In this document: piece after piece, positions 4,441 through 28,221 of the stretch | Layout: every line of letters begins with the position of its first letter | How positions within the stretch are numbered: the stretch's first letter is position 1 | Assembly: GCA_035528775.1 (NCBI GenBank) | Contig: DATKYA010000295.1 | Location: 1 to 28,538 of the forward strand | DNA: 28,538 nt | From: Planctomycetota bacterium | GTDB taxonomy: Bacteria; Planctomycetota; PUPC01; JABMSA01 | Reading direction: 5' to 3' | The notes under the pieces: generated by a model | What the model was told of the DNA's origin: nothing | The model's database searches: none | The model's input: the letters and a program-made list of their open reading frames with translations, nothing else | Position numbers and translations under genes: made by a program

Positions 4441-4596
4441 GTCTTTTCCTCCTGAAACCAAATGAAAACGTCGAGCTACCTGCGGCGCTCGCCCTGCAGT
4501 CAGTAAGGGTGATCGGCTGCCCGGGACAGATCCTTTGCGTTCGGCAGCCGCCGCAGCCCCGTCTGATACACCCCACGGGCGATGAAACGCGCGCAC

Positions 4597-4625
4597 ATGA
4601 TACAACATTCCCCTTCGGAAGTCAA
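4597..4625 (-). promoter_or_regulatory. Sigma70-type promoter for the SPFH operon
   Basis: Minus strand TTGACT (4625-4620), 17-nt spacer, TATCAT (4602-4597), about 155 nt upstream of the ATG at 4440. Confidence 0.7.
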
Positions 4626-4737
4626 GCATAACCCGAAGGAATTGGCCCTGCGCGGGTACATCGTGACCCACCCCCTGCATCGCTGAGGTGCAGCGGTGAC
4701 AAATCAGGAAAGAGATTGCGTGAGGCCTTGCGGCCGT

Positions 4738-7900: not shown

Positions 7901-8188
7901 TCACGTCCATCGTGTAGAGGTAATCGAACAGCCACGTGCCTTCGAGGTGGACGTCCTCCGCGATGGCTTCCGGCTGTCGAGTGCGAAGCCTCGGCCGTAG
8001 GTGAAGACGGTCTTCAGATCCTGTGCGTTCTTGACGGCCCGCATGGCGAGCGTGCGGCACTGGTCAAACTGCTCGAGCGCGCGGGACACCTCAGGCCGCA
8101 GGTCATCGGCGCCGGCCGAGGAACCGCCGGCCATCATCATCAGCGCGATCGCCGGAAGCACGAACCCGAAATGCACGGTGCGTTTCAT
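4738..8188 (-). CDS. Secreted GH42-like (clan GH-A fold) protein with beta-galactosidase trimerisation-like domain; two -1 frameshifts (about 7972 and 5480); ends in a dockerin-like tail
   Basis: Signal peptide MKRTVHFGFVLPAIALMMMAGGSSAGA from the ATG at 8188. FDWSVVETEPGKYDWSKID is typical of GH42/GH35-like barrels. RPAPQVALLLS...MLVMPAVQALPADVAEKIRQFVSNGGILIAT resembles the trimerisation domain. ORFs 7901-8344, 5457-8060 and 4738-5460 join by adding one base each in the plus-strand G runs at 7972-7973 and 5479-5481 (3451+2 nt = 1151 codons). Confidence 0.75.
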
Positions 8189-8273: not shown

Positions 8274-8370
8274 GATGAAGAGAACGATGAAGGATGAACG
8301 ATGAACGGACGACACCGAGCGGATGGCTGGCTTCTTCCGTTCATCGTTCATCGTTCATCGTTTATCCTTC
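8274..8370. repeat. Heptamer (GATGAAC)n palindromic REP-like element; likely terminates the large operon
   Basis: Perfect 17-bp inverted repeat GATGAACGATGAACGGA (8293-8309) / TCCGTTCATCGTTCATC (8336-8352), with further degenerate heptamers on both arms; one arm supplies the last codons and the stop of the YdjY-domain gene. Confidence 0.8.
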
Positions 8371-9350
8371 AGCTCGGGTGCAGGCTTTTCGGCCTTCTTC
8401 GTGCCCGGCGTGATGATCAGCACGACCGGCGTGCCTTTCGGTGGGGCCGTCTTCTTGTTCACGATGTAAACCGTGTCGTCGCCGCCGCTGGCCAGCGGAT
8501 TGTCGATCACCGACAGCGGGTCGTGGAAGACGGTGACGATGGATTTGTCCCGGTTGGCCATGTAGTAGTCGTTGCCCTGGTCGTCCTTGGCGAACTTGGA
8601 GCCGATGAACACCCACTCGATGTGCTCCATCGACGTGTTCTTCTTCGTGTCGAACATCAGGTCTTCGGCGCGCTTGCGGATGGTCTTGCCGTTTTCCTCC
8701 CACTGCACTTCGATGATGACGGGATCGCCGAAGGGGATGGCGGGATCGCCCTGGTATTCGGGCCCGCCGCCGGGCTTGAGACCCAGGAGCAGCAGAGAGA
8801 GGTGCAACTGCCATGCTTCGCCGCGGATGGCGACCAGGCTTTCGTATTCCTTGCCGCCCTCGGCGCAGGCAAACAGCTCCAACTGGCCTTCGTCCAGGCA
8901 GATTTTGCCGTCCACCTCGATGGTCTTCTTTTCCTTGTCGAGGCGGATGGCCTTCGGGTCGGGCTTGTTCTGCTTGTCGAGTGCGGCAGCGGGGTCGGCG
9001 CTGGCGGGATCGGCTTTCGTGGCCTGATCCGTGCCGCTGCCGGGCTCCTCGCCGGCAACAGCCGTGAAGCTCAACACCAAGCAGACGAGCAGTGCCGCGA
9101 TGAGAGCAGGTGTGGAAAGCAGTAGCAGCCCGTGTAGGGGCGGACTTCCGACAATCGAGTCTTCGAGATTGGCGGAATCGTCCGCCCATCTGGATGCCTT
9201 ATGGGGCTGGCGGTCAACAAAGCCTTCGCACGGTCGGGCGGACGATTGGCGACGACCGAGGCGGTCGTCCGAAGACTCGCCAAGTCCGCCCCTACGTCCT
9301 CGGTCGATACATTTCAAACACGCGATGCGGCGGATTCTATGAATACCCAT
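8355..9350 (-). CDS. Exported YdjY-domain protein (PVC type)
   Basis: Core LELFACAEGGKEYESLV...LHLSLLLLGLKPG...EWVFIGSKF...PPKGTPVVLIITP is recognisable as the YdjY domain. Start placed at ATG 9350 (GGAG RBS; in frame, 332 codons) because no other ATG precedes the hydrophobic signal ALIAALLVCLVLSFTAVA. Confidence 0.75.
   Translation of the reverse strand: MGIHRIRRIACLKCIDRGRRGGLGESSDDRLGRRQSSARPCEGFVDRQPHKASRWADDSANLEDSIVGSPPLHGLLLLSTPALIAALLVCLVLSFTAVAGEEPGSGTDQATKADPASADPAAALDKQNKPDPKAIRLDKEKKTIEVDGKICLDEGQLELFACAEGGKEYESLVAIRGEAWQLHLSLLLLGLKPGGGPEYQGDPAIPFGDPVIIEVQWEENGKTIRKRAEDLMFDTKKNTSMEHIEWVFIGSKFAKDDQGNDYYMANRDKSIVTVFHDPLSVIDNPLASGGDDTVYIVNKKTAPPKGTPVVLIITPGTKKAEKPAPELKDKR
9134..9295. 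repeat. 162-bp nested palindrome (GTAG-type REP doublet / REPIN- or MITE-like)
   Basis: Terminal inverted repeat GTAGGGGCGGACTT (9134-9147) / AAGTCCGCCCCTAC (9282-9295); inner pairs CGAGTCTTCG (9156-9165)/CGAAGACTCG (9270-9279) and AATCGTCCGCCC (9176-9187)/GGGCGGACGATT (9236-9247). Confidence 0.85.
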
Positions 9351-9459
9351 AGCATCTCCAATGAAACGGGCCGGACGCCCCAACGGCGCCGGCCCGGCAG
9401 ATACGTCACTGCGACCGACCGTTGTGAGGCGGAGGTCCCTGCGCCTCCGCGCGGAGCGG

Positions 9460-9939
9460 TCACCAGTCCCGCCATCGGGCGCCCGGCACCTGCGGGCCTT
9501 TCGGGATTGGTGCCGAGAACGCAATCTCGGCGTAGCCCACCTTTATGCAGGAGTTGAGCACCTGCAGCACGTAGTTGTACTGTGCTCTCGGGTCGGGGTC
9601 GATCGTCACGGGCTGATCCGCGTTGATCCCGTACAGCACCAGGAGCTTCTGCTCGAGGTCGGCGACGGTCGGATACTCGGTATCGCCGAGCTTGTAGACC
9701 GGCTTGGTGTGCCCGGGCTTCATCATCACGCGGATCACCAGTTCTTCCTCGGGCTCGAAGCTGGGCACGTTAAGGGGGTTGGGGCCGCGATCCTTCGGAA
9801 GGAAGGCATTGAGCCTGCCAGCCGGCTCCTTGAACTTCGTGCCGAGCAGGAAGAAGATGAGCAGCAGGAAGGTGACGTCGATCATGGACGTCATCTGCAT
9901 CTCGATTTCGGAGCTGCTTGCGAGGCGGCGTCTTTTCAT
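9460..9939 (-). CDS. exbD: ExbD/TolR family biopolymer transport protein
   Basis: TM motif QMTSMIDVTFLLLIFF with the conserved Asp; C-terminal VTIDPDPRAQYNYVLQVLNSCIKVGYAEIAF; TGATG overlap with the upstream exbD. Confidence 0.9.
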   Translation of the reverse strand: MKRRRLASSSEIEMQMTSMIDVTFLLLIFFLLGTKFKEPAGRLNAFLPKDRGPNPLNVPSFEPEEELVIRVMMKPGHTKPVYKLGDTEYPTVADLEQKLLVLYGINADQPVTIDPDPRAQYNYVLQVLNSCIKVGYAEIAFSAPIPKGPQVPGARWRDW

Positions 9940-10406
9940 CAGTTGGTGCCCCCTTTCAAGCTCGTTGTACTCTCAGTTACGCCGATCTTGGCGGCGAACG
10001 AGAGCTTGTACACCTTGTGCTTCACGCACAGTTGCATGATCTCCTGGATCACGCCGAACTGGGAGTCGCTGTCGGCACGAATGAGGATCGGCTTCTCCGA
10101 CACGTTTTCCCTCCTGCTCTGGTGGATCGATGCCTCGATTTTGATGACCTTCTCGAGCTCGTCGAGGGTGACGGGATACTTGCCGACGTAAACCTTGCCC
10201 GCCTTGTCGATGTTGATGGTCTGCCTGCCGGCCTCGCCTTCGTCGGGGACGGCTTCGGTCACCCGGGGGAGGGTGAGCTCGAGCGACTCCTTGGTGGCGA
10301 GGTCGGTGCAGAGCATGAAGAAGATCAGGAGCTGGAACACGACGTCGATCATGGGCGTCATGTTGATCCGTTCGCCCTCTTGTGGTTTCGACTTGATTTT
10401 CAGCAT
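9939..10406 (-). CDS. exbD: ExbD/TolR family biopolymer transport protein
   Basis: INMTPMIDVVFQLLIFF; ILIRADSDSQFGVIQEIMQLC...LSFA. Confidence 0.92.
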   Translation of the reverse strand: MLKIKSKPQEGERINMTPMIDVVFQLLIFFMLCTDLATKESLELTLPRVTEAVPDEGEAGRQTINIDKAGKVYVGKYPVTLDELEKVIKIEASIHQSRRENVSEKPILIRADSDSQFGVIQEIMQLCVKHKVYKLSFAAKIGVTESTTSLKGGTN

Positions 10407-10425
10407 GGCGGAATCCTCCTCTCGA

Positions 10426-11208
10426 TCAGCTCGCGGCCTTCTGGGCCGGCTTGAACCTCCTCATCAGGTCGGTGGCGATCGCCATGGTTTCCAGATCGAA
10501 CCGCATTACCCTGTTCCGGAAGTAGTGATACCACGCCATCAGGGGGATAGCGACCACGAGGCCCTCCACCGTAGTGATGAGGGCCATCGAGATGCCGCCG
10601 GCGAGGTCGGACGGGTTGGCGGCGACGCCCTTCTCGGCCAGCACCGCAAACGAGATCACCATACCGACCACGGTGCCCAGCAGCCCGAGCATCGGGGCAA
10701 TCGTATAGATCAGCGTGAGGTAGCTGAGCTTCTGGTGCATAGCAAGGGCGGACATCTCCGCTGCATCGCCCATCGCCTCTTCAATGGCTTCGAAGCCCTT
10801 GTCGACCCTGGAAAGCCCTGCGCCGACGATCCGGCTGAGCAGGTTGTCATCCGACTCGCACAACTGCAGTGCCTCTTCGTACTGCTCCTGCTCGAACATG
10901 TCTTCGAGCTCGGCGATGAAATGCGGCGGCAGCAGCTTGGTGCGCTGCAGTGTGATGAAGTCTTCGATCACCAGTGCCAGGCCGATGAACGACAGGAGAA
11001 TGATGATGCAGCCAACGTAGCCGGACTTCACGAGCAGGTCCCACAGGCTCATTCTGGTGGCAGCGACGGGGGCGGCAGTATCGGCGGGCGCGGCAGGCGC
11101 AGTGGCCGCCGGGGCTGCCGGGGCTGCCGGGGCAGGCTCACCTGCGTCCACCATCGTCGCCACCAACGTGATCAACAGCATTGCGATAACCAGCCAAGAA
11201 GTTCTCAT
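10426..11208 (-). CDS. exbB: MotA/TolQ/ExbB proton channel protein with signal peptide and Ala/Pro-rich linker
   Basis: LTLIYTIAPMLGLLGTVVGM...GISMALITTVEGLVVAIP; N-terminal signal followed by EPAPAAPAAPAATAPAAPADTAAP. Confidence 0.92.
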   Translation of the reverse strand: MRTSWLVIAMLLITLVATMVDAGEPAPAAPAAPAATAPAAPADTAAPVAATRMSLWDLLVKSGYVGCIIILLSFIGLALVIEDFITLQRTKLLPPHFIAELEDMFEQEQYEEALQLCESDDNLLSRIVGAGLSRVDKGFEAIEEAMGDAAEMSALAMHQKLSYLTLIYTIAPMLGLLGTVVGMVISFAVLAEKGVAANPSDLAGGISMALITTVEGLVVAIPLMAWYHYFRNRVMRFDLETMAIATDLMRRFKPAQKAAS

Positions 11209-11278
11209 GATCTTTTCAGCTCCTTTCGAACGTATCTGTCGTTTGCAACCACATGAATCCCCATATATTCAGACGCGT

Positions 11279-11298
11279 ACCGAACGCGGCGGTTCGGT
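11279..11298 (-). terminator. Short hairpin directly after the TPR gene stop
   Basis: ACCGAAC-6 nt loop-GTTCGGT; no U-tract, so it may be a processing or stability element. Confidence 0.3.
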
Positions 11299-12408
11299 TC
11301 ATTTCACGTTGAGAGCCTTCACGCCGGGGAAGTTGGCGTAGTCGCGCTTCAGCTCGGCGAACAACTCCTTGGCCCGATCCTTCTGCCCGAGGGCATTGAA
11401 GCACTGCACGGCTCCGATCAGCGACCGCGGGTATTCGTCGCCGACGGCAGAACCGAGCACGGTGACAACGCGCAGGTACTCCAGGAGTGCTTCCTTGGGC
11501 TTGCCGGCGGCCATGAGAGCGCCGCCGATGCCGTTGTAGCACTGTGCCACGATCGTGCTCAGCCTGATCTCGCGGGCGCTGACGGAGCCATCCATTTCCT
11601 TGACCGACTTGTCGATGATGTCGCGGAAGATCTTCAGACCGTCGTCGGTCTTGCCGCTGAGGACGAGTGCGGATGCCTTCAGCCGCTGGCCGGCGAGGGC
11701 GATATCGGGGTTGGAGCGCTCCACCTCGCGGATCAGTGCGTCGAGGTCCTTGATCGCCTTGTCGTATTCCTTCTTGCCGACGAGGGCTTCGGCCATCTTC
11801 ACCTTTGCCTTGTAGTAGAGATCGTCGCAGAACGTGGGTCTGCCCAAGGTGGAATCGATGGCGTTGCCCACCACGGCATAGCTCTCGATCGCCTTGTCCC
11901 ACTGCCCCTGTCCGAGCTGGATATCTCCGAGGGCGATGTGAGCATGGGGGACGAACTTGGCCTTGGGGTGGTCGGCGAGGAGTTTCCTGAGGGCTTCTTC
12001 GGCCTTGTCCAGCTTTCCCATCTGCAGGTTGCACAGGCCGATGTTGTAGGTGCAGGTGGATTCGACGTAGAACTTGCGGGCCCCCCTGACCTTCATTGCC
12101 CGCTCGTAGCGGCTGATGGCATCTTCGTATTCGCCGTTGCTGCGGGCGCGTTCGGCGGCGATGAAATCGGGCGAGCGATCGCCCCACTCGATCGATTCAA
12201 CCTCGCACTGGCGCACCCTGCCTTCGACGGCGGCGCTGGTGTAGGAGACGGCTTCGTAGGTTTCCTCCGTGACCGTACCGCTGATGGTGGTCCCGCGTTT
12301 CATGCGGATGATGTCATCAGCGGCATGAGCGGCCGCGGAGCCGATCAGCGCCGCCGCCAACGCAATTGAGAGCGTTCTTCCCAGGCCAAGTGAAGAGGTG
12401 GTTGTCAT
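11299..12408 (-). CDS. Exported TPR protein (369 aa)
   Basis: Signal peptide ...IALAAALIGSAAAHA; repeats such as GEYEDAISRYERA, GKLDKAEEALRKLLADHPKAKFVPHAHIALGDI, GKPKEALLEYLRV; ATGA overlap with the upstream gene. Confidence 0.88.
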   Translation of the reverse strand: MTTTSSLGLGRTLSIALAAALIGSAAAHAADDIIRMKRGTTISGTVTEETYEAVSYTSAAVEGRVRQCEVESIEWGDRSPDFIAAERARSNGEYEDAISRYERAMKVRGARKFYVESTCTYNIGLCNLQMGKLDKAEEALRKLLADHPKAKFVPHAHIALGDIQLGQGQWDKAIESYAVVGNAIDSTLGRPTFCDDLYYKAKVKMAEALVGKKEYDKAIKDLDALIREVERSNPDIALAGQRLKASALVLSGKTDDGLKIFRDIIDKSVKEMDGSVSAREIRLSTIVAQCYNGIGGALMAAGKPKEALLEYLRVVTVLGSAVGDEYPRSLIGAVQCFNALGQKDRAKELFAELKRDYANFPGVKALNVK

Positions 12409-15400
12409 TTCTTCTCCACGTATTCATTAATCTGATCGATGAGTTCCCTCGCCTGTCTGGCAAGGTCCGCCTGTTCCGGCGGAAGCTTGGCATCGCTGGC
12501 GATGCGGCCGAGAACCATGACGAACCTGTTGCGCCGGTCGGTGCCGCCCATCTCCGGGCGGAGGAGGAAGGTGGTCTTGAGCATTCTGAGGAGCATTTCG
12601 TACTGCTTCATCTCGACCATGCACTCCGACGCGTCGACCGAGGCATCCCACCACGTGTCGCCGCCGGCGGGAACGTTCTGCCGAATCTCCATGAAATCCT
12701 TGAGGGCATCGGCGTATTTCCTGCTCACCTTGCGGGCGAGGGCGAGGCCCTGCTTGGCCTGCCAGTGGCGTGGCGGCCTGGGTGCCCTGGGATCATTCTC
12801 GCGCATCTTCGCGTATTCCGCATCGTATTTCTTCACGAGTTTCTCGTAGATGTCCATGGCATCTGCGAGCTTGTTGAGCACGATGAGGTAGCCGGCCTGC
12901 ACCAGCCGGACGCTGTCCAACTCGTCCTCACGCTTCGCCTCGTTCCCGAACTCGTCGAGGAAGCTCTTGGCGAGAGCCAGCTTGGGGTCGACCGGGACGG
13001 CCTGGCCATGCTGGGAGAAGAGCATGATGACGTAGTAGATCATATCGAATCGCTGCTTTTCCGGCAGGAAGGCGAGGTTCGGGTCGAGCGTGAGCACCTG
13101 CTGGAAGTGCTCGACCGCCTTGGCGTAGCTTTTCCCGGCTTCTGCCGCATTGCCGTCTTCCGCCTGCTTGCGTGCCTGGGTATCCAAAGCCATCGCCACG
13201 CGGCAGGTGATGTCCGCGATGCCGGAGGAGTCTTTGAACTCCTTCAGCTCGAGCAGTTCCTTCTCGGCAGCCTCCGGTTCATCCAACTTGGCGAGTGCCA
13301 TGGTGCGGAGGTGCAGCACGTAGGGATGGATGTCGGTGGCTTGGGGGTACTTCGTTCTGATGCCGGCGCTCATCTCGATGAACTTGCGGACGCGGGCAAC
13401 GGCAAACGTATCGAGCAGCTCGAGAGCCTCCTGTGCGGATGCAGGGACCTTCTCGTGCACGGGCTGGAGCATAGCGGCGGCGGCGGTCTTGATCACGTCG
13501 GAGAGGTTCCTGACGTCGGAGCCGCTGCGCTTGATCTCGGCCCGGTAGAACGACTCCGCCGTGTTGTCGAGCATGAGCCTCCCGAGCTTGTAAACTGCCC
13601 GGCACTCGAGGTTCTGCCGCAGGCGTACGCGGTCTGCTGCCGGAGGATTTTCCTGCGACCACTTGAGGAAGGCGTCGTACAGCTTCACGGCCTCCGCTCG
13701 CTTCTCCACGCCCCTGGCGAAGTGTTTCGCCTTCAGCTCGCGGTCGGCGATCATGTCGGTGCACTGGGCGATCTCGTAGAGGGCGGAATCGTAGACGGAT
13801 GCGGCCTTGGGGGTGATCCGGCGGTAGACGTCGAGGGCCTTGTCGAGCTGGCCCTGCTCCGCGAGGTCTCTCGCCTCGATGATCAGGAATTCCTCCTCGC
13901 CAAGCTGCTTGCGCGTCTTGATGTAGAGGGCCTTGTCGAACTCGTCGCCCGTCTTGTCGAGCTGTTTCTTGAGGCTGAGGATCGCGATGAACTGGCTCTT
14001 CTCCACGTAGTCGTACTTCCTGGGATCGAAGCGGCAGCCGAGCCAGTCGCCGGTCACGTAGGCGTCGTAGTAGCGCTCGGTATGGTAGTAGCACATCGCC
14101 AGGAAGTAGCCGGCCTCGGCTCGCGCGCTCTCCCGGCCTTTCGGGTTGGCGAGCACTTTCCGGAAGGCGGCGGCGGCCTCCAGGTATCTCTTGTCCTGGT
14201 AGAGCACGCGGCCTTCCGCCATCAGGACGGTGGGATCGTCGGAATCGGGAAAGATCTTCTTCGCCCATTCGTTGATGATATCCTGGGCGGTGCCGGCCCA
14301 CTTGGGATTGGTATTGATGAAGGTGCGGCAGATTTCCATGCCGGCGTCATAGTACTTTCGGGCGGCTTCGGGGAGCGGCCCCTGCCCGGCCTGCGTCTTG
14401 AGCTTGAAGGCGGCCGAGAAGTAGATGGTTGCCTTGTAGAGCCTGGCCTTGGTCTCATCGTCGCCGCCGATACGGAGTTGCGAGATGTATGCGATCAGCG
14501 TTTCGTTCGCGTTGAGGGCGGCCTCGAACTTCCCGGCCTTGGTCAGTGTGTCGACGAGATCGAAATGTGCCCGGCGAATGAGATCGGGCACGCGCAGTTC
14601 GCGGGGCGTTGCGAGCACCCTGCGGAACGATTCCTCGGCCTTGGCAAGATCGCCTTCCTTCTTGCTCACCAGCCCCAGGTAGTAGTAGGAGTAGGACTCG
14701 AGGCTGGTCCCTTCGCCTTCGAAGGAGACCTGTTCAAGCTTGTCGAGCAGTGCCTTGAGGAGTTCCTTCCGCTTGGCATCGGCCGGCCTGGTGTCGTAGA
14801 GTTCGAGGTGGGCGTAGAGTGCCATAGCGATGCGGAAGTGCACGACGGTCACCTGGAAGTAGGCGTCGTCAAGCTCCTGCTCGAGTGCCTGCGTCTCTCG
14901 GGGATTCTTGTTGTTGGTGGCGAGGATGTGCTGGATTTCGTCGATGCGTGCGTTGCGGAGAAGGATGAGCTGCCCGAAATCATTCTCGGCCTGGGTGAAG
15001 AGGGCGTCGGCTTCCTTGAACACCTTTTCCTTCTCGTTGTCGGGAAGCTTTGCGATGCCGGCGGCGAGGATGGCGGCCTGACGCTGCTTGAGGATTGCGG
15101 CCTGTTCGGCGTATTCGACGGTCTTGGCGGTTTCGGGGCTGGCGGCGACGGCCTGCTTGAGGGCGTCTTCGGCCTTCTTGACGAGGGCGAGCTGCTCTTC
15201 TCCCGACGCGCTTTCGGCGGAATCGAGCAAGGCGGCGGCCCTTCCGAGGGCGATCCTGCCCTTCTCGATGGGGTCTTTTGCGGCGGCGACCATCTGCTGG
15301 CCGAATTTGTCGGCGAGGTCGGAGTAGCCGCGCCGCGAGATCGCTTCGAGGAACTTGAGATCCCACTCGAAGGAGGTCATGGCCATCGACTGACAGCCGG

Positions 15401-15446
15401 CGGCCGCCGCAATCACAAGGCCGAGGATGAATCGTGAAGCTCTCAA
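12405..15446 (-). CDS. Large exported TPR-rich alpha-solenoid protein (about 1013 aa), possibly a lipoprotein
   Basis: Start moved to TTG 15446 (GGGGTG upstream), giving MRASRFILGLVIAAAAGCQ, a lipobox-like AAGC; SPase I cleavage after SMA is also possible. Many TPR-like repeats (YYLGLVSKKEGDLAKAEESFRRV; AGYFLAMCYYHTERYYDAY; GQLDKALDVYRRI). Confidence 0.85.
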   Translation of the reverse strand: MRASRFILGLVIAAAAGCQSMAMTSFEWDLKFLEAISRRGYSDLADKFGQQMVAAAKDPIEKGRIALGRAAALLDSAESASGEEQLALVKKAEDALKQAVAASPETAKTVEYAEQAAILKQRQAAILAAGIAKLPDNEKEKVFKEADALFTQAENDFGQLILLRNARIDEIQHILATNNKNPRETQALEQELDDAYFQVTVVHFRIAMALYAHLELYDTRPADAKRKELLKALLDKLEQVSFEGEGTSLESYSYYYLGLVSKKEGDLAKAEESFRRVLATPRELRVPDLIRRAHFDLVDTLTKAGKFEAALNANETLIAYISQLRIGGDDETKARLYKATIYFSAAFKLKTQAGQGPLPEAARKYYDAGMEICRTFINTNPKWAGTAQDIINEWAKKIFPDSDDPTVLMAEGRVLYQDKRYLEAAAAFRKVLANPKGRESARAEAGYFLAMCYYHTERYYDAYVTGDWLGCRFDPRKYDYVEKSQFIAILSLKKQLDKTGDEFDKALYIKTRKQLGEEEFLIIEARDLAEQGQLDKALDVYRRITPKAASVYDSALYEIAQCTDMIADRELKAKHFARGVEKRAEAVKLYDAFLKWSQENPPAADRVRLRQNLECRAVYKLGRLMLDNTAESFYRAEIKRSGSDVRNLSDVIKTAAAAMLQPVHEKVPASAQEALELLDTFAVARVRKFIEMSAGIRTKYPQATDIHPYVLHLRTMALAKLDEPEAAEKELLELKEFKDSSGIADITCRVAMALDTQARKQAEDGNAAEAGKSYAKAVEHFQQVLTLDPNLAFLPEKQRFDMIYYVIMLFSQHGQAVPVDPKLALAKSFLDEFGNEAKREDELDSVRLVQAGYLIVLNKLADAMDIYEKLVKKYDAEYAKMRENDPRAPRPPRHWQAKQGLALARKVSRKYADALKDFMEIRQNVPAGGDTWWDASVDASECMVEMKQYEMLLRMLKTTFLLRPEMGGTDRRNRFVMVLGRIASDAKLPPEQADLARQARELIDQINEYVEKK

Positions 15447-15629
15447 CTCACACCCCTGCACTAGTAAACGAAGCGAGAGGGGGAAAGTTCGTACCGATGG
15501 CCCCATTAAATAAGGCGGGGGGTCTTTGCAGGCCCCCCATGAAGCTGGCCGAATGGCCAGACCCATTGTCCATCTTCGGAGGACAAAATGCAACAGCTTT
15601 CCGGCTGCGGTGAGGCTGTGCCAAGTCCG

Positions 15630-17957: not shown

Positions 17958-18019
17958 TTGGACAGTCCTCCTAACTACAGCCAAGCTCGATTGCCGATGG
18001 TCGAATCCCACGTTTCGGG

Positions 18020-18051
18020 CGAACGGGCGGGCTATGCGCCCGGCCCGTTCG
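18020..18051 (-). terminator. Long GC-rich hairpin between secretin 2 and the dockerin gene
   Basis: CGAACGGG (18020-18027)/CCCGTTCG (18044-18051) enclosing CGGGC/GCCCG; no U-tract. Confidence 0.35.
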
Positions 18052-18083
18052 GCCGCATCAAGAACACATTGCCATGCGGGGCA

Positions 18084-20399: not shown

Positions 20400-20416
20400 A
20401 TATGGTTCCTTCAGGC

Positions 20417-23134
20417 TCAGTCGTTCGAGGCCATTTTCTGTTCGAGTTCGGTTTGGACCAGAATATCGGCAGTGACCAGCACAACGAGGCTCTGCCGGGT
20501 ATCCATCTTGCCCCAGCTCATGAACAGGTACTTGATGATGGGGATCTTGGAGAGCAGCGGGACGGTTGCGAAGCCTTCGGTCTCCTGGGCGGTGGACAGC
20601 CCGCCGATGAGGATGGTGCCGCCGTCGGGCACGGAGACCGTGGTTTCGACCGCTCGAGTGAACACCTCGGGCAATTCGATGATCGTGTAGCCGTAGACGG
20701 GAACGTTGCCGGGGGTGTCGAACATGCGGGAGATCTTGACGGGCATCAACTGCCGCAGCTCGGTGATGGAAGGCAGCAGCTCGAGCGTGACGTACCGCTG
20801 ATCGGCGCTCACGTACGGCTTCACTTCCAGCACGACGCCGTCGGTAACGGTTGCGATGGTGGGGGTGCCGTCTTCATCGAAGGTCTGGAGGTAGTTGACG
20901 AGGCGGGCAACGACGACGTTGGCCCGCTGGCCGTTGAAGCAGGTGACGCGCGGCGACGTGAGGACGGTGCCTTTCTTATCCTTCCGCACGGCTTCGATCA
21001 GCGCCCGCAACTGGTAGCGGTTGAGGAATGCGATATCAAGCGACATGCCGCCGTAGGCGTTCCACGCCTGGAGCCGGTCGGGGAAGCTGACGGTGTTGAG
21101 GTTCCTGTTTGCGCCGCGGAGATCGAGATATCCCGGCAGGAGGTTGCTGGCATCCTGGATGGTCGGGTAGGGGCGCCTGCCCGACGTGTCGCTGGCGGGC
21201 AGCGGCGGCTCGAAGGGCGTGCCGCGCGTAGGGCCGAACTCGCCGTCTATAACCGTCGGATCCAACCGATACCACGGTGCTTGGGTAACGGGGATGCCGA
21301 ATTCGTCGGTGCGTTCGCTGCCCTTGTAGACGCCGCCGGCCGGGATGGACGCGCCGCCGGCCTTCTGGCTCTTGCCGCTGATGCCCTGGGTGACGAGGTT
21401 GTCGAGGCCCGTCCAGTCGATGCCTACCCGCTCCAGGAAGTCCTTGTTGATGTCGATGAACCGGGTCTGGATGCTCACCTGCAACGCCCGAGCCTTGCGG
21501 AAGTCGTCGAGAAGCTTGACGATCTTCTCGTGGACCTCGGCGTTGTGGGAGATAACGAGTTTTCCGCCGCGGTATTGGATGGTGTTTGCGCCCTTGCCGT
21601 CTTTCTCGTAGCCCCAGGAGAGCGGCTCGATGGAATCGCGGATCAGGTCAGCCCATTCCTTGCCCCGGCGATCGCGTTCTTCGGCAGTGCCTTGGCCATT
21701 TGCTCGCTTCGCGCGGTCGGCTTTCACGCCGGATGCGAGGGCATCGTAGTCGCCGGCGCCGAAGCTCTTCGCCTCCGCACACAGGTCGGTGATATCATAG
21801 ACACGCATCGTCGACTCTTCCGACGGATCGCGGTCGGAGATGATGATCATCTCGTCCTTGACGTACCAGTGAATGCGGTTCATCCTGCAGATCATGTTGA
21901 GGACGTTGACCATTTCGGTGTCGGAGACGCTCAGGCCGGCGACGCCGTCCTTCTGGATGGCGCACCGGGGGTCAATGACGATGTTGCATCCGCAGACGTC
22001 GCGCAAGTGCTTGACGGCCTCGGCGAGTGGGGCGTCGATGAAATTGCAGGAGATCCTCTTCTTCAGGCCGCCCAGGATCGAGTCCATCGCGGGGCTGCTC
22101 TTCGTATCGCTGGCGTCCAGCGCGACCGTATCGGTGGAGTGCTTCCGGGGGTTGTCGGGGTACGTGATCAGGGCGGTTGTCGGAATGGCGTCTTCGTAGG
22201 TCTGTGCGATCAGGCGGTCGTGCGAGAGCCTCTTCTCTTCTTCGACGGCCGTTGCGATGGCCTCCTTGCCATCGGTCTCGATCTTGCCCTTCAGGAACTT
22301 GGCGCCGGGGTAGTTTTCATCGATCGCGATGACCTTGTTGATGTTGTCGAGGGCCGGCTTGAACTCGCGGAGTTCGTAGTCCTTCTTGGCGTTGTCGAAG
22401 AAGCCCTTGGCTTTTTCGTGCTCGCGCTCTCGCTGCTTCTGTTCGAACAGCTTGACGATCTTCTCGGCTTCCTTGCGGGCGTGGATGGCTTCTTCGGTCA
22501 TCTGTGCGTGCTTATGAGCCTTGGCCTTCTCCAGGAGCGTGGTGGCTTCGCCGAGGATCTTGCTGGATCCGGGGACGGTCTTGCCGATGGCGATGGCCAT
22601 TTCGAGCTTCGGGATGGCTTCGGCGTATTTGTTCTCGGCGATGAGCCGATTGGCTTCGACGTAGCGGTACTCCATCTCCAGGCGGTTCTGTTTCATGAGG
22701 TCGTCGATGCCGTCATTGAGGTCGACCGCGACTTTCTGGTGGGAAAGCGCTTTGGTGGCATCGGCAAGGATCCGCTTGGCTTCGGCATTCGCGGGGTCGA
22801 CGCTGAGCACCCATTCCATAGCGGCCTTGGCTTCGGCATTGCGGCCCTTTTCGAGATGATCGTAGGCCTGCTTGATGGACATCGTGACGAGCTGTCGCTC
22901 GCGTTCGGCCTTGGTAGCTTCATCAACGTCGGCGGGCTGATCAACCGTGGCGGCGGCCGATGGTGTGCCGGCATCGCCTACTTCCGTTTCACTTGCGGCC
23001 GGAAGGATTATCACCTTGTCTTGGGAATCCGCGAAACCCACCGATGCCCAGAAGGCTACCGCGGTGAGCAGGAGCAGTATTCGCAGAGCGCTGGGCTGCT
23101 GGAAGTGACTCCTTGAAGCTCGTTCTCGTACCAA
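20417..23134 (-). CDS. Planctomycete-type secretin (GspD/PilQ family), copy 1, with extended TPR/helical N-terminus (905 aa)
   Basis: Start moved to TTG 23134 (AAGGAGA RBS); signal LRILLLLTAVAFWASVGFA; three TPR-like segments; KRISCNFIDAPLAEAVKHL; QVSIQTRFIDI; VLTSPRVTCFNGQRA; SVPDGGTILIGGL; VPLLSKIPIIKYLF. Confidence 0.92.
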   Translation of the reverse strand: MVRERASRSHFQQPSALRILLLLTAVAFWASVGFADSQDKVIILPAASETEVGDAGTPSAAATVDQPADVDEATKAERERQLVTMSIKQAYDHLEKGRNAEAKAAMEWVLSVDPANAEAKRILADATKALSHQKVAVDLNDGIDDLMKQNRLEMEYRYVEANRLIAENKYAEAIPKLEMAIAIGKTVPGSSKILGEATTLLEKAKAHKHAQMTEEAIHARKEAEKIVKLFEQKQREREHEKAKGFFDNAKKDYELREFKPALDNINKVIAIDENYPGAKFLKGKIETDGKEAIATAVEEEKRLSHDRLIAQTYEDAIPTTALITYPDNPRKHSTDTVALDASDTKSSPAMDSILGGLKKRISCNFIDAPLAEAVKHLRDVCGCNIVIDPRCAIQKDGVAGLSVSDTEMVNVLNMICRMNRIHWYVKDEMIIISDRDPSEESTMRVYDITDLCAEAKSFGAGDYDALASGVKADRAKRANGQGTAEERDRRGKEWADLIRDSIEPLSWGYEKDGKGANTIQYRGGKLVISHNAEVHEKIVKLLDDFRKARALQVSIQTRFIDINKDFLERVGIDWTGLDNLVTQGISGKSQKAGGASIPAGGVYKGSERTDEFGIPVTQAPWYRLDPTVIDGEFGPTRGTPFEPPLPASDTSGRRPYPTIQDASNLLPGYLDLRGANRNLNTVSFPDRLQAWNAYGGMSLDIAFLNRYQLRALIEAVRKDKKGTVLTSPRVTCFNGQRANVVVARLVNYLQTFDEDGTPTIATVTDGVVLEVKPYVSADQRYVTLELLPSITELRQLMPVKISRMFDTPGNVPVYGYTIIELPEVFTRAVETTVSVPDGGTILIGGLSTAQETEGFATVPLLSKIPIIKYLFMSWGKMDTRQSLVVLVTADILVQTELEQKMASND

Positions 23135-23196
23135 TGCCGTTCTCCTTTCTTGATGACCGTCCTGTGTAAGGGCAGCAGATAAACCTGTCCGCAAAG

Positions 23197-23215
23197 GCGG
23201 CTGCGGGTCAGCCGC
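23197..23215 (-). terminator. Hairpin with short U-tail upstream of the secretin genes
   Basis: GCGGCTG-ACCCG-CAGCCGC followed by CTTT on the minus strand, just after the stop at 23222. Confidence 0.4.
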
Positions 23216-23221
23216 GAGATA

Positions 23222-24922
23222 TCATTTCGGTCCCACCGGCGCAGCGGCGGCCCTTTTCAACTCGAATACGATCTGGTACGTCTGGCTGTCTTTCAGGTCG
23301 TGTTTGTTCTGATCATAGACGACGATCGGGCTGTCGTCCGGGTTGTCCGGTGCGAATGTGGCAGCCATCTCGAACTGGCCGGGCTCTATGGTGAAGGTGC
23401 GGCGGCTGAAGGGCGGCACTTCGAGCGTCAGCTTCTCCCTGGGAGAGCGCATCCCGAGCCTCAGCTTCGTTGATGCTTCGTTCACGACGGTGATGACGCT
23501 GCTGCCTCTGATCGGCGGTTGCCCCTTGTCGGGCAGGAACTTCGGCGGCTGCAACGGAGCGGGGTCCTTGCTGCAATCCCTGATGAACTGGTCCACGCCT
23601 TTCTCATACGAGTACCGGATTCCGCGGTCCTTCAGCGATTCCTGCGCGTTGTTCTGGGCGTCGGCGACCACCATTCGCTGCGTGGTCACGAGGACCGCCA
23701 CGTCTCTGACGCCCTGATTCGGCACGAACATCTGGCGGGTTTCCTCATTGACCCTATCGCCGAAATCCACGAGCATGAGGCCCGTGGCGTATTCCCTGTC
23801 GCCGATCATCTCTCCGCAATGGACGTTGAAGAATTTGAAGCGGGGGATGTATCCGAACCAGCGCGCCACCTCAATGCGAGCAGTATCGCCGAAACCGCCA
23901 ACCAGCGACACCACGAACGGCGAGGCGGCCTTCACACTGACAACGGGCGACGCATTGATGTCGGTCTTCTGCACGCTCTCCTTCCTGACGGCGCTGTCGC
24001 GAACCGAGCAGACCGTCTGGATGTAGTAGTAGTATTCCACGCCGGGCTTGACGTCGAGATCGTCCCAACTGTATTCGATTATGGTGGGCGAGCACAGCCG
24101 CTCGGGATCGACTCCTCCCGCGGCTGCCTTGGCCATGACCGCTGCCAGTGCTTCCTTGCTGGGCTGCTCGCGACCCTCGACCTGCACTTCCACCACCCGT
24201 ACGGGATCCGCGCCCTTTTGGGACGAGCGGAATATCTCATAACTCTGAGCAGGAACACTCTTGGGGTGGGTTTTCCAGGTGAGCGTGTTGTAGCCGCGAT
24301 TTGCCGTGGCGGCAAAATTCTCCGGCACCTCGGGTACGTTCGGAATGGTGATTTCGTTCGGCGTGATCTCCAGCGGAAGCTCGATCCGCGAACCTTCGAT
24401 GCCCACCAGTCGGACGATGCACGCCCCTTCGGTCTTCGGGGTGATCCGCAGCAGGTTCTTGTCCTTGTCTACCGTGACGTCCACGATGGCCTTATCGGTG
24501 ACGGTGAGCGCCATCATGTCCATCGTGAGGCCCTGCAAGGTAGATGCCTTGATCGCGTCGTATTCCACGGTAGCCTGTGTCTTCAGGTTACTGATGTACT
24601 GGATGGCGAGCTTGGGGAGGATGACGTCCTTGGGGCTGTAGAACACGAACTTGCGGAAGGGGTGCCCGGGGATGTCAAGCGGCTCAAAGCGCTGTTTGAG
24701 ATCGTCGTAACCGGCGAGCATCGGCTGGTCCTTGGGGACAGGGAGTGAGCCGACGTACTCAGCGGTATCGGTGAGGGCTGTCTGCATGGCGCGGACCACC
24801 TGCTTGACGGCCGATTCCTTCTGGAAGGTGTTGTAGAGCGCAAGCGCTGCCACCACCAGGGCCAACAGAAGAATCACCTTATCAACGCTGCGGAAAACCG
24901 GGTTTCGCGGATCAAGACTCAT
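23222..24922 (-). CDS. Membrane-anchored periplasmic protein with Ig-like and fibronectin type III domains, in the PilP position of the cluster (566 aa)
   Basis: N-terminal TM VILLLALVVAALALY; Ig-like TVTDKAIVDVTVDKDKNLLRITPKTEGACIVRL; FN3 VPEVPENFAATANRGYNTLTW...SYEIFRS...WDDLDVKPGVEYYYYIQTV; located between the PilO-like gene and the secretins. Confidence 0.7.
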   Translation of the reverse strand: MSLDPRNPVFRSVDKVILLLALVVAALALYNTFQKESAVKQVVRAMQTALTDTAEYVGSLPVPKDQPMLAGYDDLKQRFEPLDIPGHPFRKFVFYSPKDVILPKLAIQYISNLKTQATVEYDAIKASTLQGLTMDMMALTVTDKAIVDVTVDKDKNLLRITPKTEGACIVRLVGIEGSRIELPLEITPNEITIPNVPEVPENFAATANRGYNTLTWKTHPKSVPAQSYEIFRSSQKGADPVRVVEVQVEGREQPSKEALAAVMAKAAAGGVDPERLCSPTIIEYSWDDLDVKPGVEYYYYIQTVCSVRDSAVRKESVQKTDINASPVVSVKAASPFVVSLVGGFGDTARIEVARWFGYIPRFKFFNVHCGEMIGDREYATGLMLVDFGDRVNEETRQMFVPNQGVRDVAVLVTTQRMVVADAQNNAQESLKDRGIRYSYEKGVDQFIRDCSKDPAPLQPPKFLPDKGQPPIRGSSVITVVNEASTKLRLGMRSPREKLTLEVPPFSRRTFTIEPGQFEMAATFAPDNPDDSPIVVYDQNKHDLKDSQTYQIVFELKRAAAAPVGPK

Positions 24923-24952
24923 TCTTCAACTCCATCGGTTCAGCAAGTTGCG

Positions 24953-26275
24953 TCAGCGCACTCTCAACTCGGGCACGTTGTGCTCGACGGTGCCGAAGTA
25001 GACGGTGATGCCTTTCTCCAACTCGCATTCCATCGGTTCGCTGTTGAGCATGTCGCCATAGACCTCGCACCGGATCGGGGCATCGGCGTTCTCGGGTTCC
25101 TTGAAGGATCCCTTGGAGATCTCGGTGGCGAGGGCCTTCATCACCGGGTCATTCTGCTGGTTCAGATAGTTCTCGACGGCGGCCTGGTCGGGGAATTGCC
25201 CCCTGGCAAACTCGACCTTGCTGATCGCCCCGGAGAAATCGAGCACCTTGCACTCGACCTTCACGGTAACGAAAGCCTGCCCGGTCGTCTGCACTCGTGC
25301 GGCGGCCGCTGCTGAAATCCTGTCGCTCATGCCGCGCTCGATCGTGAACGACGTGATGCTCAGCGGCAGGCCGCAGTTGATGATGCGCTCGATGAGGAAG
25401 GGGACGTTCCGCGGCAGCATCGACACATCGAGCGAGACCGTGTAGTACACGTACCGCGGGTCAAACGGCATGTCTTCTCGCTTCTCGGGAATCTTGAAGA
25501 TTACCTTGTTGAACAGGGGCACGAGGGCGGGCTCCTTCTCGGCGAGGCGGACGACGTTGCCCTCTTTGGCGGCGGCATCGGGGGCGGGATTCGCCGCAGG
25601 AGTCTCAGGCTCTGCCGTGGCAGCGGGGGCCGCCTCCGGCTCCTTGGCGGCATCGTCCGCTTTCGCTCCGGCATCCTTCGCGTCTTCGGCGGCACCTTTC
25701 GCTTCCGCCGCCGGTGCGGGACCCTTCATCGCCTCCAGCAGCTTCTGCTGGATGTACACCTGCTTGTGTGCGTAGATGAGCATCTTCGCGGTCGGGGTCT
25801 CGCCTTCGACTTTCAGCCAATCCCAGGGGAGGGACTGCGTGTCCATCCCGATTCTCGCATCGAGGGCCATCTGTTTGCAGGCGTCTCGCGCGTTCAGGAT
25901 CTGGTTGAGCAGCAGAGTCCGCTCGCGGGGCGTGAGGTTGAGCCTCCTGGCCGGGATGATCCTCGTGCCGATGTCGAAGAAGCGGTCGATCATGTCGTCC
26001 TTGCCGATCAGCAGAAGGCACATGCGGAGGTATTCGCGGTGGAGCTCGGCCTTGCGCTTTTCGGCGGCCTGGATCATGGGATCGTTGGCGGCGTTGCCCG
26101 GCTGGCGCAGGCCGTCAAGCTGGTCTTTCAGCCTACCGAGCTCCTCCAGTCGGCTGGCGCTGTCGCCCTTCATCCGGCTCACGGTGCCGGGCACGGGCAG
26201 CAGGTAGATGCACAACTCGGCGAGCAGGATAACCGCCATGAATACCCAGAATACGTTGCCTTTCAGTTTACCCAT
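24953..26275 (-). CDS. PilO/GspM-position bitopic membrane protein (Amuc_1100-like by synteny) with Ala/Pro/Glu linker (440 aa)
   Basis: TM VFWVFMAVILLAELCIYLL, coiled coil, ferredoxin-like core YTVSLDVSMLPRNVPFLIERIINCGLPLSITSFTIER...VTVKVECKVLDF; TAATG coupling to pilM. Confidence 0.65.
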   Translation of the reverse strand: MGKLKGNVFWVFMAVILLAELCIYLLPVPGTVSRMKGDSASRLEELGRLKDQLDGLRQPGNAANDPMIQAAEKRKAELHREYLRMCLLLIGKDDMIDRFFDIGTRIIPARRLNLTPRERTLLLNQILNARDACKQMALDARIGMDTQSLPWDWLKVEGETPTAKMLIYAHKQVYIQQKLLEAMKGPAPAAEAKGAAEDAKDAGAKADDAAKEPEAAPAATAEPETPAANPAPDAAAKEGNVVRLAEKEPALVPLFNKVIFKIPEKREDMPFDPRYVYYTVSLDVSMLPRNVPFLIERIINCGLPLSITSFTIERGMSDRISAAAAARVQTTGQAFVTVKVECKVLDFSGAISKVEFARGQFPDQAAVENYLNQQNDPVMKALATEISKGSFKEPENADAPIRCEVYGDMLNSEPMECELEKGITVYFGTVEHNVPELRVR

Positions 26276-28221
26276 TATTCCTGTTCTCCCTGCGGTTGTG
26301 CGGCAGCCCTGATGCTCACGTTGACCCTGATGGTGAATTCGATCCGCCTGCGTTGGGCGGCGTCAGCCGCCTCGGGTGGTGCGTTGGCGGGGCCTTCGCG
26401 CACTTCGCGTGTGCCCACGATGGCAGGCATCTCGCTATCCTTGGCGGCCCCGTGATCGGTGAAGAGCGGCACCTTCAGCTTCCTCACAAGGTTGGCCTCG
26501 ACGAAGGCGAGATCCTTCTCGGTCCAGCCGTCGATGAGCATCTCGTATCTCACCTTCTGCGGGGGAGGCGGCGCCTGCGCTTCAGACTCGGCATCGCGCC
26601 CCTCGTATCGCTCCACCGGAGGGGGCTGCACTTCATCCATCCTCACCTTGGTCAGGAAGATATCGTTGCTCACTTCACCGTAGACGGTGGAGAGCTCGTT
26701 GAGTGCCCTCAGCATGAGATCGCGGTTCTTGCCGACCCCTGCGATTCCGGTGATGTCGGCTTCGATCTTGATGGTGTCGGTGGCTTTCCGGTAGCGCTTG
26801 ACGATGTCTTCATATTCCTTAACGACAACCTCCGGGGAGCTCCTGACGAGCTCTTCGTACCTCCTGATGGCTGTTTGCGGGTCGTTCTTGAGGAGCTCTT
26901 CGTACTTATGGATAGCGGCCTGCGGGTGGAGCCTGGCTATCTCTTCGTACTGCTTGATGGCGGCCCGCGGGTCCCGCTTGACGAGGCCTTCGTATTCCTT
27001 GACGGCTACGGCGACCTCCTGCTCCGGGACAACGTTCTTGAGCTCCGTGCTGTCGACGCGGCTGCCGTGGTAGACGGCAGCCAGGGCGATGCCCAGGCAG
27101 GCAACGGCGGCCACGGTGAATGGTTTCTTGCGAACCACCTCGCGCCGCATCTTGACTTCGTCGGGCAGCACGTTGATGGTGACCGGTCCATGGCCGGCCG
27201 CCTGCAATGCCAGGCCCATCGACGTTGCGAAGCTGGGGAGGTCCGACGAATGCTCGCTGCCCGCCGCCGAACCGGAAAGGGATATCCGCTGGAAGCTCGA
27301 CAGCACGGTGACCTGAGCACCGAGGCTCTCGCGGAACATTTCCACCAGCGGCTGCATCCGGAAGCTGTCGCCCACCAGGTAGGCCTGGTCGATCTTCAGC
27401 GTCTTGAATTGCTGCTTGTAGTAGCCGATGGTCTTGTGGATCTCGCCCAGCAGGCGGTCAAACGTGGGCCGCATCACGGTGAACATCTTGTCGGGCACTT
27501 TCGACTGTGCCGACTTTCTCTTGAGGTCTTCGGCTTCTTCCTGCGAGATGCCGAATTTCTGCTGGAGGATCTTGGTGATGGAGTCGCTGGAGATGGGGAT
27601 CGAGCGCACGCGGAAGTTGCCGTCGGCCAGGATGACGATGTCGGTGATGCCGGCGCCGATGTCGACGATCATCGTGCCGCTGTTGATCTGGCGGTCCCAC
27701 TTCAGCAGGTTGTAGAGGGCCAGGCGGCTCATCCCGATGATGTCGACGCCGAGGTTGATCGACTCGAGGCTGGCGAGAGCCTGCTGGATGATCTGTGTCT
27801 TGATCGCGAAGAGCGCGATCTCGATGCCTTCGCCGGGGCGCGGGGGCCGGTCGGATGCGGGCTGGTAGTCCCACGCTACCTCGTCGAGGGGGAAGGGAAT
27901 CTGCTGCTTGGCCTCGTATCTGACGATCTGGGGCACCTGCTTCATACTGACGGCCGGGAGGCTGATGAACCTGTCGAACCCGGCGCCGGGCACGGAGAGG
28001 GCAACACGTGCCGAGCCGAGCTTGTTCCGGGAGACGAGGATCCGCAGTGCGGCGCGCACCTGCTCGTCCTTGTCCACGTAGTTGAAGCCTTCAGCCCGGA
28101 AGGTGCGGGGCACGCTGTCCATCGCGAGCACTTCCGCCCGGGTGCCGGATACGCGCATCTTGACGGCTCGAACAGCCGACTCGCTGATGTCGATACCCCA
28201 CGCTACTTTGCTGCCGAACAT
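26275..28221 (-). CDS. pilM: PilM actin-like pilus assembly protein fused to a PilN-like TM/periplasmic domain (648 aa)
   Basis: AWGIDISESAVRAVK; IVRYEAKQQIPFPLDEVAWDY; MIVDIGAGITDIVI; EIHKTIGYY; then EVKMRREVVRKKPFTVAAVACLGIAL (PilN-like TM); GGAGG RBS. Confidence 0.9.
   Translation of the reverse strand: MFGSKVAWGIDISESAVRAVKMRVSGTRAEVLAMDSVPRTFRAEGFNYVDKDEQVRAALRILVSRNKLGSARVALSVPGAGFDRFISLPAVSMKQVPQIVRYEAKQQIPFPLDEVAWDYQPASDRPPRPGEGIEIALFAIKTQIIQQALASLESINLGVDIIGMSRLALYNLLKWDRQINSGTMIVDIGAGITDIVILADGNFRVRSIPISSDSITKILQQKFGISQEEAEDLKRKSAQSKVPDKMFTVMRPTFDRLLGEIHKTIGYYKQQFKTLKIDQAYLVGDSFRMQPLVEMFRESLGAQVTVLSSFQRISLSGSAAGSEHSSDLPSFATSMGLALQAAGHGPVTINVLPDEVKMRREVVRKKPFTVAAVACLGIALAAVYHGSRVDSTELKNVVPEQEVAVAVKEYEGLVKRDPRAAIKQYEEIARLHPQAAIHKYEELLKNDPQTAIRRYEELVRSSPEVVVKEYEDIVKRYRKATDTIKIEADITGIAGVGKNRDLMLRALNELSTVYGEVSNDIFLTKVRMDEVQPPPVERYEGRDAESEAQAPPPPQKVRYEMLIDGWTEKDLAFVEANLVRKLKVPLFTDHGAAKDSEMPAIVGTREVREGPANAPPEAADAAQRRRIEFTIRVNVSIRAAAQPQGEQE
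26788..27012 (-). repeat. Five tandem 45-nt (15-aa) repeats in the PilN-like periplasmic stalk
   Basis: AVAVKEYEGLVKRDP / RAAIKQYEEIARLHP / QAAIHKYEELLKNDP / QTAIRRYEELVRSSP / EVVVKEYEDIVKRYR; 225 nt = 5 x 45. Confidence 0.9.

Follow-up and report, generated by a model that had tools for sequence, protein, structure and literature searches.

Contig DATKYA010000295.1 (C295) of the Planctomycetota bacterium assembly GCA_035528775.1, whose whole length of 28,538 nucleotides is called the window below, carries twelve open reading frames (ORFs) on its minus strand between positions 8355 and 28221. Their order is PilM-PilN fusion, U440, U566, secretin 1, secretin 2, beta-helix-dockerin protein, large tetratricopeptide repeat (TPR) protein, small TPR protein, ExbB, ExbD, ExbD and YdjY-domain protein (Table 1); that is, a pilus/secretin module like the MUL2 locus of Akkermansia is joined to a TPR/ExbBD module. 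This is a real, conserved and hitherto undescribed combination, and the block is this genome's own copy of an old, widespread supra-operon of Planctomycetota, the special features of the window being the tandem secretins and the dockerin insert. An initial annotation of the DNA had listed the same twelve co-oriented genes at the same coordinates, and its list of contents was confirmed by family searches and by structure models of U440 and U566. The source assembly is a metagenome-assembled genome (MAG) of 3.66 Mb in 690 contigs, which is 77.5% complete; the window sequence, with a GC content of ~61% throughout, is present in soil metagenome runs.

Table 1. Genes of the block, in minus-strand order
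Feature	Coordinates	Strand	Description
PilM-PilN fusion	26275..28221	-	648 aa; PF11104 1.1e-35; TIGR01175 158.7 bits, cut-off 133
U440	24953..26275	-	440 aa; predicted bitopic inner-membrane protein of Amuc_1100 / PilO-type fold (structure-based call)
U566	23222..24922	-	566 aa; bitopic, N-terminal membrane helix, three Ig/FN3-like beta-sandwiches, poorly modelled C-terminal tail
Secretin 1	20417..23194	-	up to 925 aa; signal peptide, N-terminal TPR-like region; PF00263 8.5e-28
Secretin 2	18084..20399	-	771 aa; PF00263 1.5e-25; FecR_C 25.7 bits, cut-off 24.4
Beta-helix-dockerin protein	15630..18011	-	secreted; C-terminal dockerin PF00404 2.6e-9; likely start near 17957
Large TPR protein	12405..15593	-	1062 aa; TPR families; likely start 15446, giving ...FILGLVIAAAAGC
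Small TPR protein	11299..12408	-	369 aa; periplasmic, signal peptide; many TPR families
ExbB/TolQ-type proton channel	10426..11208	-	PF01618 1.5e-27
ExbD paralogue 1	9939..10406	-	PF02472 2e-25; membrane-helix Asp retained (TPMIDV), read from translation
ExbD paralogue 2	9460..9939	-	PF02472 2e-17; membrane-helix Asp retained (TSMIDV), read from translation
YdjY-domain protein	8355..9350	-	NF040466 1.7e-38; YdjY domain 8406-8948; start codon uncertain

Components of the twelve-gene block

The genes of the block are closely packed. Stop and start codons overlap at 26275, four bases are shared at 12405-12408 and one base at 9939, and the remaining gaps measure 17-90 bp, or up to ~185 bp if the later starts of the dockerin gene and of the large TPR gene are adopted. 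Since the same gene order is fixed in many distant genomes, the arrangement is more than chance. The family-model search of the window gave no match to GspE/PilB, GspF/PilC, TonB_C or TonB-dependent receptors, which bears out these absences in the initial annotation, within the limit that the contig stops 317 bp upstream of the pilM start; no ORF in these 317 bp reads into pilM. Terminator-like sites in the window are no more numerous than in shuffled sequence, and the terminator/promoter scan was uninformative.

In the first gene, the cytoplasmic actin-like PilM domain is followed by a membrane helix (~366-388), five 15-aa helical repeats and a C-terminal periplasmic domain, and because these three parts come after the PilM domain the protein is taken as a fusion of PilM and PilN. 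It is scored more highly by the Amuc_1101_fam model NF045709 (3.5e-60, 204.5 bits) than by the generic pilM model (158.7 bits), the former score lying under the equivalog cut-off of 650, which makes the protein a homologue and not an equivalog of Amuc_1101. The window copy is the sole long PilM found in its own genome. The five repeats (...KEYEGLVKRDPRAAI..., window 26788-27012) extend the periplasmic stalk of the fusion, and homologues in the same family measure 586-648 aa, so that the length of the stalk is variable.

The next two proteins, U440 and U566, have no Pfam or NCBIfam match and no sequence match in the PDB. The AlphaFold2 model of U440, based on 39 homologues in syntenic loci (predicted local distance difference test, pLDDT, 66.8), shows an alpha/beta domain and long helices besides a membrane helix. 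When this model was compared with the PDB by Foldseek, the top ten matches were Amuc_1100 chains only, with PilO next, and VIA-align gave Z scores of 12.0, 11.7 and 11.3 to Amuc_1100 over 162-166 residues and of 7.3 and 6.2 to PilO. Moreover, an Atlas protein feature search placed U440 at 0.94 to clusters carrying PF28028 (Amuc_1100), and a crude profile-profile comparison of the planctomycete proteins in this position with the verrucomicrobial protein in the same position gave a probability of 78% over just 39 columns. As far as the model can tell, U440 is an Amuc_1100-fold protein standing directly after PilM. The model of U566 (pLDDT 64, with ~90 for residues 201-387) matches Ig/FN3 tandems in Foldseek. 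The protein appears to be fast-evolving, because the sequence search for it gave just 3 homologues; it is the counterpart of Amuc_1099 by position alone, the profile match between the planctomycete and the verrucomicrobial proteins in this place being confined to the membrane helix.

Both secretins score under the PilQ cut-off (TIGR02515; 96 and 88 bits vs 284) and far under that of GspD (TIGR02517; 95 and 77 bits vs 351), and against the Amuc_1098 model the secretin reaches 92 bits, the cut-off being 750. In the secretin tree, secretins 1 and 2 are mutual closest relatives (Shimodaira-Hasegawa-like approximate likelihood ratio, SH-aLRT, 97; 48% identity), and secretin 2 is, by this sequence comparison, a recent paralogue of secretin 1. 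The same tree contains an independent tandem pair in family f4, and the pairs that flank the motor elsewhere group in sister clades of their own; because the pairs fall in separate clades, duplication of the secretin within this type of cluster has been repeated. Such repeated independent duplications are seen in the window (18084-23194) and in loci L026, L033, L041, L044, L049-L054 and L063, and the repeated retention of a second secretin may mean that the channel is mixed or has two rings.

Downstream of the secretins, the beta-helix-dockerin gene is a lineage-specific insert: in none of the other loci examined does a counterpart separate the secretin from the large TPR gene. On contig C519 of the same assembly (L023, 6666-9719) there is a 1017-aa paralogue of its beta-helix part with 36-39% identity; viewed as a possible second cluster locus, this contig holds just the beta-helix paralogue and a weak TPR match.

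The large TPR protein is probably a lipoprotein, to judge from a lipobox read from the translation, and in other linked loci its position is occupied by proteins of 970-1400 aa. The small TPR protein reaches 55.4 bits against the CpoB/YbgF model, under the cut-off of 90.1, and its gene is conserved directly upstream of exbB in the linked loci. The last product of the block, the YdjY-domain protein, has a hydrophobic leader followed by an acidic lysine-rich linker, and its gene start region (window 9134-9350) is unusually long ahead of that leader. YdjY follows exbD in families f1, f4, f5, f14, f35 and f56; the YdjY family as a whole occurs in 175 of 201 Planctomycetota genomes and is often unlinked to the cluster. 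A role of this protein as a stand-in for TonB, suggested by its tonB-like position and its linker, was considered and dropped: the leader resembles a cleavable signal (AVA-G), and the idea is also disfavoured by the frequent lack of linkage and by the occurrence of the family in genomes without long PilM. In Planctomyces sp. SH-PL62 (L024, CP011273.1), which we take to belong to Isosphaeraceae, the order is PilM(828)-578-697-secretin(1466 aa)-YdjY(241), with no exbBD between, so that YdjY stands directly beside the secretin.

Conservation of the joined order in Planctomycetota

The joined order was traced through relatives at several distances, the two positions that follow PilM being denoted X and Y. 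Same-class relatives G004, G006, G009, G015 and G023 have PilM-X-Y-secretin-large TPR-small TPR-ExbB-ExbD-ExbD-YdjY on one contig, and G013 has the same order from the secretin onward, where its contig is cut. A long PilM is present in 160 of the 201 Planctomycetota genomes. For a blind sample of synteny, 20-kb stretches around pilM were picked from 40 families without knowledge of their content; in 17 of them, the secretin and two large ORFs of ~1000 and ~370 residues are followed by exbB-exbD-exbD in the same orientation, and a second secretin follows the exbD genes in 10 of these 17. Once families f1, f3 and f5 are added to the blind sample, the joined order is found in 20 of the 43 families examined.

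A PilM tree with Verrucomicrobiota as its root has linked loci dispersed throughout the planctomycete part, early branches included, and requires at least 11 changes of state. Where linkage is lacking, each half is still recognisable: in the unlinked genomes G091, G087 and G190, TPR-TPR-exbB-exbD stands alone elsewhere (with a second exbD in G091 and G087), and pilM-X-Y remain together. Because each persists as a unit when separate, both halves are stable modules that are joined in many lineages. The initial annotation had emphasised that the two modules are physically joined, and this joining is conserved in the 17 blind families as well as in f1, f3, f4 and f5, so that the view of the halves as never linked in relatives fails.

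Outside the block, a GH42-like gene (window 5457-8060) lies downstream on the same strand, with a strong match to the Glyco_hydro_42M trimerisation domain and a weak match to the catalytic domain. The initial annotation had noted it beside the joined modules; it is absent from the same-family relatives G001 and G002. In the distant genome G087 (L127), a GH42-like gene is located three genes downstream of the stand-alone TPR-ExbBD module. Further along the window, two adjacent SPFH/Band 7 proteins of 507 and 646 aa are encoded on the minus strand (1135-4680), and an ORF of 240 aa without a family match follows this pair.

Relation to Akkermansia loci and to other secretin and ExbBD systems

In Akkermansia, a 'pili-like' locus Amuc_1098-1102 has been described (PMC13174399, PMC5332112). 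MUL2 comprises Amuc_1099-1102, in which Amuc_1101 is a PilM and Amuc_1102 is pilin-like, and this locus, linked with the uptake of glycans, is conserved among Verrucomicrobiales (PMC13174399). The MUL genes are required for the accumulation of mucin in cells (PMC12418764; bioRxiv 10.1101/2024.03.27.586211) and likewise for mucin uptake (PMC13174399). For comparison, Verrucomicrobiota were entered through genomes obtained by 16S primer match, namely an Akkermansiaceae MAG and a Verrucomicrobiae MAG, not the A. muciniphila type strain. An Amuc_1101-type PilM was found in 63 of 71 Verrucomicrobiota genomes, and the 21 loci inspected consist of a small upstream ORF (~200-260 aa), PilM, X, Y and a secretin, with tandem secretins, like those of the window, in 5 of them.

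The first half of the window block is the planctomycete counterpart of Akkermansia Amuc_1101-1100-1099-1098, as is evident from the Amuc_1101_fam score, the Z score of 12 to Amuc_1100 and the same order in the 21 loci: a long PilM, an Amuc_1100-fold protein, a bitopic protein and a secretin. The differences are equally clear. The PilM and the secretin of the window are far under the equivalog cut-offs (204 vs 650 and 92 vs 750 bits), U566 carries three Ig/FN3 domains, and the window locus carries TPR/ExbBD genes. In addition, no Amuc_1102-like gene was found, on a contig that ends shortly before pilM; in the relative G001 the ORFs upstream of pilM are of 370-590 aa, the nearest having 379 aa, against the ~200-260-aa ORF of Verrucomicrobiota, and a profile comparison left the upstream ORFs of the two phyla unmatched.

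As regards the second half, the MUL1 locus of Akkermansia is reportedly of a TPR/ExbBD type and is said to be the second one needed for mucin uptake. We take mul1A to be Amuc_0544, within MUL1 (Amuc_0543-0550), and the exbB-exbD-TPR locus of the Akkermansiaceae MAG may correspond to MUL1. In this MAG, the ExbB most similar to that of the window sits in exbB-exbD-TPR(851 aa), apart from the PilM locus. With ExbB, ExbD and a large TPR protein, this locus resembles the second half of the block in its kinds of component; the order differs, however, and the 851-aa TPR protein is not significantly similar to the large or the small TPR protein of the window. The analogy with Akkermansia drawn at the outset therefore holds for the first half, which matches Amuc_1098-1101, while a similarity of the TPR proteins to the exbBD-linked TPR protein of Akkermansiaceae is undetectable. 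In the Verrucomicrobiae genome G217 (L101, G217:C2:891000-910999), the exbB most similar to that of the window also lies away from the PilM locus, in the order exbB-exbD-exbD, 1002-aa TPR protein, unassigned 305-aa ORF, TonB-dependent receptor. To have a large TPR neighbour of exbBD thus seems characteristic of the Planctomycetota-Verrucomicrobiota-Chlamydiota (PVC) group, in a TonB context too.

What the block has in common with the type IVa PilMNOPQ complex of Pseudomonas, Myxococcus and Thermus is a PilM that passes the TIGR01175 cut-off, together with a putative PilN-like stalk, a protein whose model aligns to PilO (though better to Amuc_1100) and the PF00263 secretin domain; and, as in Pseudomonas, the operon is free of ATPases, with PilB, PilT and PilC encoded elsewhere in the genome. 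The block differs in that its PilM and PilN are fused and no PilN or PilO Pfam match is obtained; that a PilP-type lipoprotein is lacking, U566 having a membrane helix, no lipobox and generic Ig/FN3 folds; that there are two secretins without recognisable Secretin_N or AMIN and with N-terminal TPR and FecR_C-like parts; and that ExbBD and TPR genes are embedded in the operon. With the TonB motor, TolQR and AglRQS, the block has in common a single ExbB and a pair of ExbD paralogues, each of which keeps the conserved membrane Asp. TPR proteins beside the motor are likewise found in the window, as CpoB in Tol-Pal and as GltD/GltE in the gliding machinery of Myxococcus. In contrast to these systems, the cluster has no TonB, TolA, GltG/J-type transducer, TolB, Pal or TonB-dependent receptor, and the outer-membrane genes that adjoin the motor are secretins.

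Possible roles of the joined modules

Planctomycetes take whole polysaccharides, and even proteins, into an enlarged periplasm by a mechanism that has been called unknown (PMC5394234, PMC11131199). Their crateriform structures, ~100 per cell, join the outer and inner membranes, and the 12-nm fibres that they carry bind dextran, the uptake system being uncharacterised (PMC5394234). It is suggested here, with moderate confidence and from homology and synteny, that a type IV pilus-like secretin conduit is functionally tied to the TPR/ExbBD module and that its likeliest role is the capture of polymers and their uptake into the periplasm. In such a machine the scaffold half, made up of the cytoplasmic PilM fused to a PilN-like stalk, the Amuc_1100/PilO-fold protein, the bitopic Ig/FN3 protein and the outer-membrane secretins, would span the envelope and would act, with ATPases encoded elsewhere, as a machine that works a pilus or fibre through the secretins. 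The TPR/ExbBD half would add proton motive force as a second input to that process, at its step in the outer membrane, which may be the gating or assembly of the secretin via the TPR proteins or the TonB-type import of material captured by the fibres. Overall, large polymers would be captured and taken into the periplasm, in line with reports on the MUL loci of Akkermansia and on the fibres of planctomycetes. A bolder form of the proposal holds that ExbB-ExbD-ExbD is mechanically coupled via the large and the small TPR protein to the secretin or to the PilN/O-like scaffold, that proton motive force (PMF) gates or powers the passage of polymers, and that this is the basis of the crateriform 'press-stud' complexes and the dextran-binding fibres. 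This form is speculative and decidedly unlikely as it stands. In the papers searched, none connects the crateriform structures with PilQ, PilM or ExbB.

Several observations weigh against a functional tie between the halves. The modules are separate in many families, and a coherent unlinked PilM clade includes Planctomyces sp. SH-PL62 and a Tepidisphaeraceae MAG. Among the 21 Verrucomicrobiota loci, none has exbB/exbD within 17.5 kb of the PilM locus. In three soil metatranscriptome libraries, 20-26 short contigs each (180-440 nt, at least 95% identity, with carry-over of DNA into the RNA libraries possible) are spread across both halves of the block, which favours the tie, but no contig bridges any gene junction. 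Finally, the cluster ExbB is the sole PF01618 match in G214 and the sole strong one in G072 (sites G214:C4:581427-581735 and G072:C10:70597-70902); these genomes are small and nearly complete, and in both of them TonB_C and TonB-dependent receptors are encoded on other contigs, where no separate motor accompanies them. Because the cluster ExbB is the sole clear ExbB there, the cluster motor may also, or only, serve TonB.

The alternative is that two independent systems stand side by side, namely a type IVa pilMNOPQ-type operon, with its ATPases, platform and pilins encoded elsewhere, and a general ExbB-ExbD-ExbD motor for TonB-dependent transport with TPR accessories, the adjacency being inherited or co-regulated without mechanical coupling. 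It gains from the separation of the modules just described and from the single ExbB of G214 and G072, and it agrees with the pilMNOPQ operons without ATPases in model bacteria, with the pilB-pilT-pilB-pilC block and one PilM in the window's own genome, and with the 1002-aa TPR protein of G217, whose exbB-exbD-exbD-TPR set is two genes from a TonB-dependent receptor. Against this, the order is kept in the 17 of 40 distant families, often with the motor between two secretin genes, and deep conservation of gene order usually means that the products interact. Furthermore, neither TonB_C nor a TonB-dependent receptor was detected in the window's own genome at its 77.5% completeness, and larger genomes such as G198 have extra canonical exbB-tonB-receptor clusters besides the cluster copy. 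Both TonB_C and receptors are present elsewhere in relatives G198, G214, G038 and G072. Juxtaposition of two independent systems is regarded as on the whole rather unlikely, and a functional tie between secretin conduit and motor is preferred.

The model put forward in the initial annotation was an ATPase-free machine, in which the ExbBD motor, acting via TPR solenoids in place of TonB, drives import or export through the secretins. Neither the cluster nor, in linked loci from other families, the ~17 kb downstream of pilM contains an ATPase, a platform protein, a pilin or TonB, and the TPR-TPR-exbB order is strictly conserved. On the upstream side, the prospect that a dedicated ATPase/platform/pilin set lies just outside the window has not materialised: G001, the closest relative, has no pilin- or ATPase-like ORF by size and N-terminal sequence in the 10.8 kb before its pilM, no family-model scan having been made. 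Against the model, the window's own genome contains at least 8 full ATPases of the PilB/GspE type, four other, shorter matches to the T2SSE family (PilT among them), at least 6 platform genes and eight secretins, and the pilB-pilT-pilB-pilC block is located on contig C478. PilT occurs in 192 of the 201 Planctomycetota genomes, typically on a contig other than that of the pilM cluster or far from it; its co-occurrence with long PilM is uninformative, since PilT also occurs in families without detectable long PilM. Operons of the pilMNOPQ type are normally without ATPases, for example in Pseudomonas aeruginosa. Because of this, and because pilB-pilT-pilC are encoded elsewhere in a genome with a single long PilM, the missing ATPase, which had been read as the sign of an ATPase-free machine, is weak evidence; and because PilT is nearly universal in the phylum as well, the scaffold could use ATPases in trans. 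Moreover, the intact actin-like domain of PilM implies a cytoplasmic partner of the PilB/PilC type, no TonB-like transducer was identified in the cluster, and to our knowledge no secretin is driven by PMF. The replacement of the ATPase by a proton motor, and of TonB by TPR proteins, is unsupported, and the ATPase-free model as a whole is considered quite improbable.

A type II secretion-like exporter for the beta-helix-dockerin protein and similar cargo is the least credible of the readings, indeed highly improbable. It would account for a secreted dockerin protein encoded within the cluster and for the GH42-like gene downstream, but none of the other linked loci examined has the dockerin gene, G001 and G002 lack the GH42-like neighbour, genes for GspE, GspF, GspC and pseudopilins are missing from the cluster, and both secretins fall far short of the GspD model, as noted above.

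In summary, the block is a candidate for the polymer-uptake machine of planctomycetes. Neither SH-PL62 nor the Tepidisphaeraceae MAG has exbBD beside pilM, and if this is general in the cultured model species, it may explain why the link has gone undescribed. As an operon conserved in many uncultured planctomycete lineages, it supplies a concrete list of genes for knock-outs and for cryo-tomography of the crateriform structures; and if it is true that the motor acts on the secretin, the channel would be energised in a manner new for secretins.

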